Assembly: GCA_963696295.1 (NCBI GenBank)
Contig: CAVOJR010000001.1
Coordinates: 1,760,001-1,824,000, forward strand
Source: an uncultured Chlamydiae bacterium
Lineage (GTDB): Bacteria; Chlamydiota; Chlamydiia; Chlamydiales; JAJFMB01
DNA length: 64,000 bases
Direction of reading: 5' to 3'
Part shown: one piece after another, positions 49,122 to 50,829 of the stretch
Layout: each line of letters starts with the position of its first letter
Position numbering within the stretch: position 1 is the stretch's first letter
Position numbers and translations under genes: made by a program
Notes under the pieces: generated by a model
The model's database searches: none
Told to the model about the DNA's origin: nothing
The model's input: the letters and a program-made list of their open reading frames with translations, nothing else

Positions 49122-49429
49122 AATATAAAGGTTATACTGGATATGTCGTCTTTGATGAAGAGGCTCGCATTTTTCATGGAGAAGTTGTCGGGCTTAGAGC
49201 GGTTATCACTTTTCAAGGCACCACTGTAGCAGAGATTGAGCAATCTTTTAAAGATTCTATAAATGATTATCTCGAATGGTGCAAAAAAAGAGGTAAAGAA
49301 CCAGAGGTATCCCACTCAGGGAAATTAAATCTCAGGATGCCTCCGGATGTATATGTTAAGGTTGCAGCTCGGGCAGCTCAGGAAGGAATAAGCATTAACT
49401 CATATATTATAAAGAGGCTGTCAGCCTAA
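49115..49429 (+). CDS. hicB: Type II antitoxin HicB
   Basis: YKGY.G, HGEV.G...VITFQG, DYL.WC, SGK.NLR ribbon-helix-helix tail. Confidence 0.9.
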   Translation: MLKYKGYTGYVVFDEEARIFHGEVVGLRAVITFQGTTVAEIEQSFKDSINDYLEWCKKRGKEPEVSHSGKLNLRMPPDVYVKVAARAAQEGISINSYIIKRLSA

Positions 49430-50829
49430 ACGTTCTTTAGGAGCTCTTCCAGGGTGCGGTAGCCGCACAGATACTGCTCGGGGGTTTGAATGGCCGCCAT
49501 GCGCCCCTCCCGCATTGCACGGGCTGTCTTATGGTAGAGGTCGGAATCCAATCCCTTGGAGGAGTCTTCGCGGATTTTTTGATAGGTCATAAGGGCGGTA
49601 AGCAGCGTCCCTGTTCTTCCGATGCCTGCGCGGCAATGGACCGTGAGGGGGTTTTCTCTTGAAAAACTGCACGCGAGTTTTTCCACCAAAGCAGCCATCT
49701 CCTCAAGTGAAGCCGTGCTATGGTCCGGCCAGCCGGTAAACTGGTGATGGGTGACTGTGCGCTTTTCGCTTCCACTCTGGATCGTCAGTTTTCGGGTGAT
49801 GAGGTTGTTCTGCGCTGTTCTGGAAATGGGTTGGATGGTGATACTGCCGTAAGTGACGCTCTCTTCCCCTTCGGGCCAATACTGGCAGCACTCAGCGGTC
49901 TTGGTCAGCATGGCGATCGTGCGGCTGTCCGATTGCCATATCATCTTCCAAAAATCGTCGCAATGTCTGGACTCAGGTCCTTGAGCGGCGAGCGCCTTTC
50001 CCTCGAAAAGAACGCTGGCGTTATAGTAGAAATCATTTCCCCTGAAAGCGTTATCATCAAAGGGCATGATATTAATAAACCGGTTTTTGGAGGTGTTTTC
50101 AGCGCTCAAGGCATAGGTGCACTTATGAAGATCATTTATATTGTTGGGAAGCTGGTGATATTCTGTATGCAGCGTCGCATCCGTTTTGTCCGGCAGGGCG
50201 ATGCGGAAAGAGGGGGCCTGCACCGGCTGAGGGACTGGTTTGTAGGGGATTGTCAGTGCTTTATGTGTCTGAACGTAATGCTCCAGTGAGTTATAGCCGT
50301 TGACCCCGAATTGATCGATCAGTTTCTGGTGCTGAACGACCCCCTTTTCATCGACAGAAGCGAGGCAGATATTTTGTTTTTCCTGGGAAGGGTAAAACAA
50401 AAAAGTTCCTGGGGGCCGGCCTTGCAAACTTTCGGCAGCCTGATTTTTTGTGAAGGAATGGAAGTGAGGCGACGTGCTGAAATCCACAGTGGAGGATTGG
50501 CCTGTTTGATGTAATCCTGGGTTCCCCTCGCATTCCTTTAAAAGTTTTTCAAAAGTGAAGCCGTCGGATATCTTACTGTCGGTTTCCGGATCCATCTGGT
50601 ACCAGAGATCCCCCTCATTTTTCACAGGATAGTGCTCAATATAATCTTCGGAAAGCTTGACGGAAAGAATTGTGCCTTCTTCAACCGTTTTTCTCAATAT
50701 CCACGCTCCGGCGCGGGGGGGCTTAAGGGCTGTTTCCGCCTGTTCCCGGCTGGCGGGTTGACATTTATAAGTAGCGGAGGTTGAAGTATAGTTGCTTTTG
50801 GCTACGTTCTTTATCATTTTTGATCTCAA
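49426..50829 (-). CDS. Classical protein tyrosine phosphatase with two N-terminal SH2-like domains
   Basis: KNRF, AQGP, DFWKMIW, CQYWP, WPDH, VHCRAGIGRTG, IQTPEQY; SH2-like SREQAE..L....GAWILR and HFHSFTKNQA...L..RPPGTFLF.PS...YNSLEHYV. Confidence 0.85.
   Translation of the reverse strand: MRSKMIKNVAKSNYTSTSATYKCQPASREQAETALKPPRAGAWILRKTVEEGTILSVKLSEDYIEHYPVKNEGDLWYQMDPETDSKISDGFTFEKLLKECEGNPGLHQTGQSSTVDFSTSPHFHSFTKNQAAESLQGRPPGTFLFYPSQEKQNICLASVDEKGVVQHQKLIDQFGVNGYNSLEHYVQTHKALTIPYKPVPQPVQAPSFRIALPDKTDATLHTEYHQLPNNINDLHKCTYALSAENTSKNRFINIMPFDDNAFRGNDFYYNASVLFEGKALAAQGPESRHCDDFWKMIWQSDSRTIAMLTKTAECCQYWPEGEESVTYGSITIQPISRTAQNNLITRKLTIQSGSEKRTVTHHQFTGWPDHSTASLEEMAALVEKLACSFSRENPLTVHCRAGIGRTGTLLTALMTYQKIREDSSKGLDSDLYHKTARAMREGRMAAIQTPEQYLCGYRTLEELLKNV

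Follow-up and report, generated by a model that had tools for sequence, protein, structure and literature searches.

Gene and domain layout

The window analysed here is a stretch of 64,000 nucleotides from the genome of an uncultured chlamydial bacterium (contig CAVOJR010000001.1, positions 1,760,001 to 1,824,000; the genome is referred to as G000). On its minus strand lies a gene for a predicted protein with two SH2 domains, called N-SH2 and C-SH2, in front of a protein tyrosine phosphatase (PTP) domain. The metazoan phosphatases SHP-1, SHP-2 and Corkscrew (PTPN6, PTPN11) have the same order of N-SH2, C-SH2 and PTP with similar spacing. The gene, its domains and functional residues are collected in Table 1 together with the adjoining features. 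Besides the TTG codon that opens the longest frame, an ATG at 50817 gives a 463-aa form, which is entry P0001 in our protein collection. This ATG is likely the true start of the gene. At the stop codon, we notice a weak terminator-like hairpin (49427-49415).

Table 1. Features of the SH2-SH2-PTP gene and of the sequence next to it (positions in the window)
Feature	Position	Strand	Description
SH2-SH2-PTP open reading frame	49426..50829	-	467 aa from TTG 50829; stop codon 49426-49428
N-terminal leader, aa 5-22	50764..50817	-	polar, predicted disordered; ahead of first SH2
N-SH2 domain, aa 20-105	50515..50772	-	alphaA2 Arg28, betaB5 Arg46, betaD4 His66
betaB5 Arg46 codon	50692-50694	-	in N-SH2, invariant with SHPs
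C-SH2 domain, aa 117-200	50230..50481	-	alphaA2 Lys128; Tyr146 at betaB5
Tyr146 codon	50392-50394	-	FLVR-Arg position, in FLFYPS, aa 143-148
Classical PTP domain, aa 245-460	49450..50097	-	Pfam PF00102, predicted
pTyr-recognition loop KNRF, aa 248-251	50077..50088	-	KNRY variant, Tyr replaced by Phe
WPD loop WPDH, aa 367-370	49720..49731	-	general acid Asp369
P-loop HCRAGIGRTG, aa 398-407	49609..49638	-	nucleophile Cys399, Arg405
Q-loop IQTPEQY, aa 447-453	49471..49491	-	sequence motif
AT-rich spacer, prpD stop to gene start	50830..50887	-	58 bp; 70 bp to the ATG
HicA toxin	48828-49121	+	Pfam E 2.2e-13; convergent with the SH2-SH2-PTP gene
HicB antitoxin	49115-49429	+	Pfam E 2.8e-17; convergent with the SH2-SH2-PTP gene

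The C-terminal part of the protein matches the Pfam family Y_phosphatase with 171.8 bits (E 2.4e-50, cut-off 20.9), and the match runs over profile positions 1-232 of 234. Other PTP-fold families of Pfam reach at most 33 bits on this protein, with weak dual-specificity and phytase-like matches among them. The genome-wide search gave the same span, and phmmer matches in the PDB are receptor and non-receptor PTPs. A first-pass annotation, made from the letters of the window, had quoted a set of classical PTP motifs for this part. All of them are in place, including AQGP (aa 282-285), DFWKMIW (aa 292-298) and CQYWP (aa 315-319), and chance is no explanation for such a match. In alignment A4, P0001 and two of its relatives (P0003 and P0004, see below) were set against three metazoan SHPs, an insect and a flatworm protein among them. 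The N-SH2 betaB5 Arg, the LSV strand, the betaD4 His, HC..GIGRTG, W.D of the WPD loop and Q..QY are invariant there, so that the chlamydial protein shares with the SHPs the catalytic Cys, Arg, Asp and Gln of the PTP as well as the two N-SH2 residues. The four catalytic elements are conserved across six family members and with the SHPs. Judged by its sequence, the C-terminal domain belongs to the classical Cys-based PTPs, and no part of the catalytic set is missing. In contrast to the PTP domain of the SHPs, it is about 30 residues shorter, and several loops are absent.

Upstream of the PTP domain, the Pfam SH2 profile (PF00017) scores 32.9 bits over two stretches of the whole protein (cut-off 21) and 35.1 bits on the N-terminal 240 aa. 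Taken singly, the two blocks count against an easy assignment. Block 2 by itself scores 18.9 bits (E 0.0017), slightly below the cut-off, and the genome-wide Pfam SH2 search returned only the C-SH2 domain, again below the cut-off. Block 1 alone (aa 1-105) gives no Pfam SH2 match, and block 1 therefore needed independent support as an SH2 domain.

Such support comes from a profile of the aligned N-terminal regions of 7 family members (A2), which we searched against all PDB sequences. It found 145 distinct sequences at E<=1, and SH2 proteins make up 60 of 60 among the matches listed. Positions 13-75 of the profile, corresponding to block 1, match the C-SH2 domain of PLC-gamma1 (E 3.4e-6), TXK and VAV2, and positions ~126-188, corresponding to block 2, match the C-SH2 domain of p85alpha (5.4e-5), ZAP-70 and SOCS1. 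The tandem SH2 region of SHP2 is a collinear match with E 1.2e-3.

On the basis of AlphaFold2 models, we compared the predicted folds with known structures. The full-length model, built from a 6-row family alignment, has a mean predicted local distance difference test score (pLDDT) of 72.9 and a predicted TM-score (pTM) of 0.50, which leaves the domain arrangement undefined. A second model covers residues 14-205 alone (7-row alignment, pLDDT 80.9). In both models, each block is built as a helix, three or four strands and a helix with pLDDT about 80-92; block 1 has the topology alphaA-betaB-betaC-betaD-alphaB at pLDDT 83-92. Foldseek with the full-length model gave full-length SHP2 or SHP1 for all among the matches listed (best E 7.5e-21, 494-537 aligned columns, 21-24% identity). 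The TM-scores of these matches are merely 0.36-0.41, because the relative positions of the domains differ. With the N-terminal model, SHP-1 is first (7e-8, 218 columns), followed by the tandem SH2 region of SHP2 (1.4e-7, 191 columns). VIA-align placed single SH2 chains on model residues 99-191, which is the C-SH2 domain (Z 10.8-12.1, root mean square deviation 1.6-4.0, 80-92 residues), while the tandem-SH2 chains of ZAP-70, Syk, p120RasGAP and PLC-gamma2 cover model residues 2-188 with 164-174 aligned. The N-SH2 fold was tested structurally solely through such tandem-SH2 alignments (VIA-align residues 2-188; Foldseek 183-257 columns). Taking the A2 profile matches, the predicted topology and the tandem-SH2 structural alignments together, we regard block 1 as an SH2 domain. 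The profile and structural comparisons thus bear out two earlier proposals, that the two upstream blocks are SH2 domains and that the protein has the architecture of SHP-1 and SHP-2, with N-SH2, C-SH2 and PTP in collinear order.

Both arginines that had been named for block 1 are present. Arg28 lies in SREQAE (aa 27-32) and Arg46, the betaB5 Arg, in WILRK (aa 43-47), followed by IEHY (aa 64-67). In the alignment, a NEGD turn of the N-SH2 domain (aa 71-74) falls opposite the NTGD D'E loop found in the SHPs. The C-SH2 domain carries the motif FTKNQA (aa 126-131), and the Tyr noted before at its FLVR-Arg position is likewise found. Ahead of the N-SH2 domain, model residues 1-16 have pLDDT below 50. 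The first 25 residues from the ATG include 4 Ser, 3 Thr, 2 Asn, 0 Asp and 1 Glu. No Sec signal or membrane helix was found in the whole protein, in which the highest 19-residue Kyte-Doolittle mean is 0.73.

Relatives of the protein and other chlamydial SH2 proteins

A word-indexed search of 5.8 billion clusters yielded 214 proteins at E<=1e-3 out of 7141 candidates. Four of them are relatives of the window protein, all from Logan assemblies: P0002 (61% identity, 443 aa), P0003 (43% identity, 461 aa), P0004 (43% identity, 480 aa) and P0005 (51% identity over the PTP half, 362 aa, one SH2 domain). Below these four there are only eukaryotic PTPs with at most 37% identity, among the matches listed (120 of 214). 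An exhaustive phmmer search with residues 1-215 against 1.84 billion representatives gave 11 proteins at E<=1e-3. Six of them are relatives, namely P0002-P0005, the fragment P0121 and P0122. The other five are eukaryote-like multi-SH2 proteins with E 2e-5 to 7e-5, and all five match on block 2.

P0122 is a paralog in the same genome (plus strand, G000:C1:59525-60664, L003:1066-2205). Its frame of 379 codons has one SH2 domain, and its PTP domain is 55% identical to that of the window protein. The C-SH2 domain is missing from P0122, P0005 and the fragment P0121. Where a C-SH2 domain is present, its betaB5 residue varies: P0001 and P0002 have Tyr, and P0003 and P0004 have Arg. By this residue, the C-SH2 domain is probably degenerate for phosphotyrosine (pTyr) in P0001 and P0002. 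The earlier description of one active and one degenerate SH2 domain can be kept, at the level of sequence, for P0001; as a trait of the family it cannot, given the Arg in P0003 and P0004.

The Y_phosphatase family has six loci in G000 in all. The four that remain besides the window gene and its paralog lie at G000:C1:2317141-2317914, 3273023-3273625, 3274522-3274812 and 1514422-1515036 (L004-L007). Three of these are frames of ~500 aa whose N-terminal ~250-300 aa belong to no Pfam family, and two of the three adjoin each other. In 60 other genomes of the order, 21 have a match to the SH2-SH2-PTP protein, always to the PTP part only. A scan of contigs from genomes other than G000 with alignment A1 gave 25 pattern matches and a single 'relative', 27 residues on a Weissella contig, which we regard as chance.

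SH2 domains are found elsewhere in the chlamydial order as well. Over 400 scored genomes, the A2 profile has SH2-like matches in 24 including G000, in 17 of the 303 high-quality genomes and in 19 of 216 genera. One family of the order (f8) has them most often, in 9 of 49 genomes. Two genomes contain further fusions with a phosphatase. In G057, a 618-aa protein (L035:1940-3796) has three SH2 domains (87.2 bits) and then Y_phosphatase (78.1 bits) with HCRAGVGRSG and a WPD loop. A second frame of the same genome (L026:1-1998) has at least 666 aa with at least 4 SH2-like repeats, and its C-terminal part, which carries no domain assignment, runs off the contig. In G164, a 635-aa frame combines an SH2 match slightly below the cut-off (20.1 bits) with Y_phosphatase (52.6 bits). 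G267, from a different family of the order, has a tandem array of three frames of 576-608 aa, each with an SH2-like N-terminus and a kinase of the HRDVKPENV type (L036, G267:C2:464500-472500). Pfam SH2 is above the cut-off in one of the three kinases, and the family SH2 profile matches the other two weakly; a 327-aa SH2 protein adjoins the array. Like the window protein, these proteins of the same order join SH2 domains to an enzyme of pTyr pathways, but the PTP domains of G057 and G164 are very divergent, and SH2 number and position are unlike those of the window protein.

Smaller SH2 proteins complete the picture. In one genome (G117), an SH2 domain comes together with a weak match to ankyrin. 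Small SH2-like proteins that stand alone (125-173 aa) occur in G210, G194, G367, G394 and G321 (L029, L030, L032, L033 and L034), with Pfam confirmation in two of the five; the Pfam-checked stand-alone SH2 proteins measure 139-173 aa. Five A2 matches have no Pfam confirmation at E<=1e-3 (L028, L029, L030, L033 and L037). The SH2-SH2-PTP sequence is thus not unique: it has a paralog, four metagenomic relatives, one fragment and distant SH2-PTP fusions in other chlamydiae. The profile matches in 24 of 400 genomes suggest that chlamydial SH2 proteins may form an effector class that has gone unreported.

In the accessible text of Kaneko et al. 2018, an exhaustive search of bacteria is described that yielded 93 SH2 domains, all from Legionellales and grouped in ten clusters (PMC6208348). 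The partner domains named in that text are a cysteine protease, a U-box and L22, with no phosphatase among them. According to the same text, the Legionellales proteins LeSH, LUSH, RavO and DoSH come from amoeba-associated intracellular bacteria, keep the betaB5 Arg and in some cases are fused to enzymes. Several are shown there to be translocated, and degenerate copies occur too, with His at betaB5 in the N-SH2 domain of DoSH. They use the Dot/Icm type IV system (PMC6208348), whereas for the chlamydial protein, which has a classical PTP fused to its SH2 domains, type III secretion would be expected. We compared these effectors with the chlamydial protein by description only.

YopH and SptP reach their substrates through N-terminal domains other than SH2, and neither has an SH2 domain. 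They are likened to the chlamydial protein here by description only, both having the PTP fold. YopH of Yersinia and SptP of Salmonella are type III-secreted Cys-based PTPs that act on host proteins, as mentioned in the accessible part of one paper (PMC6208348).

In literature that came mostly from non-subscription journals and excluded supplements, we found no description of chlamydial SH2 domains or of a bacterial SH2-PTP fusion, and an earlier mention is possible. On bacterial and prokaryotic SH2 domains, nothing beyond Kaneko et al. and works citing it appeared among the matches listed. This agrees with the earlier remark that no characterised bacterial protein has the SH2-SH2-PTP layout. 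As read from sequence, what is new here is that a bacterial SH2 effector type and a bacterial PTP effector type are joined in one SHP-type protein, and in a new phylum.

Origin of the SHP-like layout

Two phylogenetic trees bear on the question of how the chlamydial protein came to resemble the SHPs. The PTP tree has 71 rows, since 84 of 155 had been removed for exceeding 62% identity to a retained row. The 155 rows themselves were collected without domains of fewer than 180 profile positions (L019 included) and without a duplicate of P0122. It was made by a quick IQ-TREE run, with support by the SH-like approximate likelihood ratio test (SH-aLRT) only. In this tree, the six SH2-PTP proteins form one clade (100*). 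A branch (88, not starred) has all 20 chlamydial PTP domains to one side of it, and the metazoan SHPs, three in number (99*), are nested in a metazoan clade of 40 rows (95*). The SH2 tree contains 49 domains over 88 columns, with weak domain hits dropped. The bacterial N-SH2 domains (99*) and C-SH2 domains (86) are found there with other chlamydial SH2 domains (88), while the N- and C-SH2 domains of the SHPs come together (95*) and the SH2 domains of G057 make up a separate group.

Within the PTP clade, forms with one and with two SH2 domains are interleaved. P0122 groups with the metagenomic P0003 (98*) and not with the window gene, and P0005 groups with P0004 (93). The C-SH2 domain has therefore been gained or lost more than once. 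When G057 and G164 were added to the PTP tree, they fell outside the six-member clade on very long end branches (2.7 and 4.4 changes per column), in a position without support. The G164 protein had been missed by the family-specific hidden Markov model, and Pfam borders were used for its PTP domain.

Two accounts of this resemblance have to be weighed. We favour a modular assembly inside the chlamydiae, at least for the C-SH2 domain, over the capture of a complete SHP gene. Under capture, an SHP-like gene of a eukaryote, either SH2-SH2-PTP or SH2-PTP, would have been acquired horizontally from a host, and the layout of the effector would be inherited. Several features speak for capture: the collinearity and similar domain spacing, the 27-28% identity to SHPs of insect and flatworm along the whole alignment, the first places of SHP2 and SHP1 in Foldseek for both models, and the NEGD turn aligned with the NTGD loop. 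Meanwhile, the approximately unbiased (AU) tests weigh against a purely bacterial assembly at three points. A clade of the family PTP domains with those of the SHPs is not rejected (delta lnL, the difference in log-likelihood, 1.02; p 0.485), nor is a clade of the N-SH2 domains with the SHP N-SH2 domains (p 0.514), for which the constraint even improves the tree by 0.53 lnL; a single clade of all four SH2 groups likewise escapes rejection (p 0.155). The tested groups were also named after the first tree had been seen, and the eukaryote sample is biased towards metazoans and holds no known amoebozoan SH2-PTP protein.

On the other hand, a clade of the C-SH2 domains with the C-SH2 domains of the SHPs is rejected by the AU test (p 0.0014), so that, over these 88 columns, the chlamydial C-SH2 is not an ortholog of the SHP one. 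The free trees place the family with other chlamydial PTP and SH2 domains, apart from the SHPs. In sequence searches, the SH2 blocks match best to PLC-gamma, p85 and multi-SH2 proteins of protists and not to SHP, and the absence of the C-SH2 domain from the paralog, P0005 and the fragment is likewise at odds with an inherited layout. The SHPs extend well past the PTP domain into a C-terminal tail with regulatory tyrosines, which is missing from the chlamydial protein: P0001 and P0003 end a few residues after the PTP domain, and P0004 has an extension of 13 residues. The proposal of the first-pass annotation that the protein is a mimic of SHP therefore survives as to domain order. It does not as to the tail and the C-SH2 domain. 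The PTP domain stands apart from SHP in the free tree, and a joint clade is allowed by the AU test. Taking both sides into account, we consider capture somewhat unlikely.

In our reading, at least the C-SH2 domain would have been recruited from a chlamydial pool of SH2 domains, and the architecture would be modular. A wider form of this modular account is one that we put forward tentatively. Environmental chlamydiae would then possess an SH2-based set of pTyr effectors, consisting of the SH2-SH2-PTP protein, proteins with three SH2 domains and a PTP, SH2-kinases, multi-SH2 adaptors and stand-alone SH2 proteins, and the SHP layout would be a convergent re-invention by bacterial domain shuffling. 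That this whole set is directed at the ancient pTyr signalling of protist hosts is equally tentative. The re-invention might possibly extend to autoinhibition mediated by SH2. The family makes it testable whether the SHP architecture can arise more than once.

Host bacterium, proposed function and genomic setting

The assembly of G000 consists of two contigs and is 97.4% complete. The chromosome contig that carries the gene has 3,298,190 bp, no N and 47.1% GC, and the second contig (G000:C2; 135,310 bp, 42.9% GC) is probably a large plasmid. LepA, encoded in the window, shares 79-83% identity with its closest relatives of other lineages, and the named ones among these are Parachlamydiaceae, Protochlamydia, Neochlamydia and Rubidus. 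Four genes for TLC-type ATP/ADP (nucleotide) transporters are present (G000:C1:918731-920197, 936541-939703, 2799619-2801088), two of them adjacent. The type III secretion genes comprise an intact SctU (254914-255933), SctV and two secretins. From the LepA relatives, the transporters and the Sct genes, it follows that the source is an environmental chlamydia, an obligate intracellular energy parasite. All Chlamydiae have a type III secretion system, as stated in the accessible part of one paper (PMC6925127).

For this bacterium, we think it reasonably probable that the SH2-SH2-PTP protein is a soluble, type III-secreted effector, in which the N-SH2 domain docks on host pTyr and the PTP domain dephosphorylates nearby proteins. 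The type III secretion genes of the genome accord with this, as do the reliance of Chlamydiae on such secretion (PMC6925127), the translocation shown for most Legionellales proteins with characterised SH2 domains (PMC6208348) and the pTyr repertoire of amoebae (PMC4053784). In this scheme, the polar and disordered N-terminus would carry the protein through the injectisome into the cytosol of a protist host of the amoeba type; we infer that the leader, disordered in the model, may be a type III secretion signal. With its intact pTyr pocket (Arg28, Arg46, His66), the N-SH2 domain would bind to a host protein that is phosphorylated on tyrosine. The PTP domain tethered to it, with Cys399, Arg405, Asp369 and the Gln-loop, would then dephosphorylate the docked protein or its neighbours and damp a pTyr pathway of the host. 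The C-SH2 domain, which has no betaB5 Arg, would probably be a spacer, have a regulatory role or bind in a non-canonical way. We infer secretion, host target, activity and regulation alike.

An SHP2-like autoinhibition by the N-SH2 domain is conceivable. In autoinhibited SHP2, the NTGD D'E loop plugs the catalytic cleft, and the alignment of NEGD with NTGD might hint at a similar arrangement; we take it as a lead and not as evidence. A predicted complex of N-SH2 (16-106) with the PTP domain (205-463), run without controls, scored 0.00 against a mark of 0.32 and is neutral on binding.

Several observations weigh against the proposed secreted pTyr phosphatase. The sole FHIPEP/SctV gene (G000:C1:255988-258185, L021/L022), just upstream of which SctU lies, is split over three reading frames that follow one another (255988-256833, 256706-257341 and 257037-258185). 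The cause is either two true frameshifts, with decay of the export gate of the secretion system, or indel errors in the assembly. The gene lies only 58-70 bp behind a metabolic operon, and no promoter was called in the spacer. In the PTP domain, Arg stands behind the P-loop Cys at a position usually occupied by Ser, and Phe takes the place of Tyr in the pTyr loop.

These points are also the grounds for other explanations. With the gene behind prpBCD on the same strand and SctV frameshifted in the assembly, the protein might not be secreted and might act inside the bacterium, for example in bacterial tyrosine phosphorylation or in control of the developmental cycle. We find this improbable. The characterised SH2 domains from outside eukaryotes belong, as far as the accessible text of the survey goes, to Legionellales effectors that are translocated and to a few viral cases (PMC6208348). 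Moreover, most chlamydiae lack the family, and its patchy distribution (PTP-part matches in 21 of 60 genomes, SH2-like matches in 24 of 400) fits an accessory gene of host interaction and not core physiology, and the bacterium is an obligate intracellular energy parasite. The altered residues of the P-loop and the pTyr loop, together with the weak dual-specificity and phytase-like matches, could instead mean that the substrate of the PTP fold is not a protein but, for instance, a phosphoinositide, or that the fold is dead and the protein is an adaptor that shields pTyr. For such an adaptor, one may point to the Legionella SH2 domains, which the accessible text calls pTyr 'superbinders' (PMC6208348). 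Against this, the four classical catalytic elements are conserved in six family members, and the 171.8 bits for a classical PTP stand against at most 33 bits for the other PTP-fold families, which makes this explanation very improbable in our view.

An artefact, either eukaryotic contamination or a chimeric assembly, would have in its favour that the best matches outside the family, among the matches listed, are all eukaryotic PTPs of at most 37% identity. However, the gene is a single intron-free frame in an N-free contig, between the bacterial hicAB and prpDCB genes. Its GC content (50.6%) and GC at third codon positions (GC3, 58.5%) are near the values of its neighbours, whose GC3 is 61-70%. 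A paralog lies at another site of the chromosome, and other chlamydial genomes also contain SH2-PTP fusions with this layout. Identical contigs of 151-265 bp from soil metagenomes (2 studies) cover parts of the gene and its flanks, and none spans the whole stretch; one of them (49309-49573) bridges the 3' end of the gene, but the window may itself derive from such a run. A chimera with eukaryotic DNA, which had been considered from the beginning, is ruled out by the N-free contig, the GC content and the bridging soil contig. We therefore exclude contamination or chimerism of the locus for practical purposes, and an artefact of either kind is barely conceivable.

As a secreted phosphatase, the chlamydial SHP-type protein would take SH2-based host mimicry to a second, unrelated intracellular lineage with another secretion system. 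Its SH2-SH2-PTP layout amounts to a compact natural fusion of reader and eraser, in which the coupling of SH2 targeting to PTP catalysis can be studied. Amoebae, whose pTyr signalling is elaborate, are the likely hosts; for Acanthamoeba, the accessible part of one paper counts 22 protein tyrosine kinases, 12 PTPs and 48 SH2 proteins (PMC4053784). The protein could thus serve as a probe of the pTyr pathways that matter for survival in protists.

Around the gene, the genes prpB, prpC and prpD lie upstream on the same strand, in this order. Transcription of the SH2-SH2-PTP gene may start at an own promoter in the 58-bp spacer or come by read-through from prp. The scan for promoters and terminators called no consensus promoter in this spacer, and its sites are no commoner than in shuffled sequence (3 versus 2.7 and 4 versus 3.0). 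On the other side, the stop codons of hicB and of the SH2-SH2-PTP gene overlap by 4 bases, and past hicA-hicB there are genes for the E1alpha, E1beta and E2 subunits of an oxoacid dehydrogenase. The region downstream of prpD is different in all three relatives examined (G001, G030 and G019), from which the ancestral arrangement at the locus is not inferable, and G002 has no prpD match.

Five DNA sequencing runs from soil metagenomes (2 studies) share window words, with a share of 0.06-0.17 each. No RNA run turned up among the runs that share window words, which is uninformative on expression or habitat.

Elsewhere in the window, two large open reading frames on the plus strand (29556-32288, 910 aa, and 11295-13376, 693 aa) remain without an NCBIfam match at E<=1e-5. 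On the minus strand, positions 43941-45449 encode a protein of 502 aa with a Fic/DOC domain (Pfam E 3.3e-16), which could be another host-directed enzyme.

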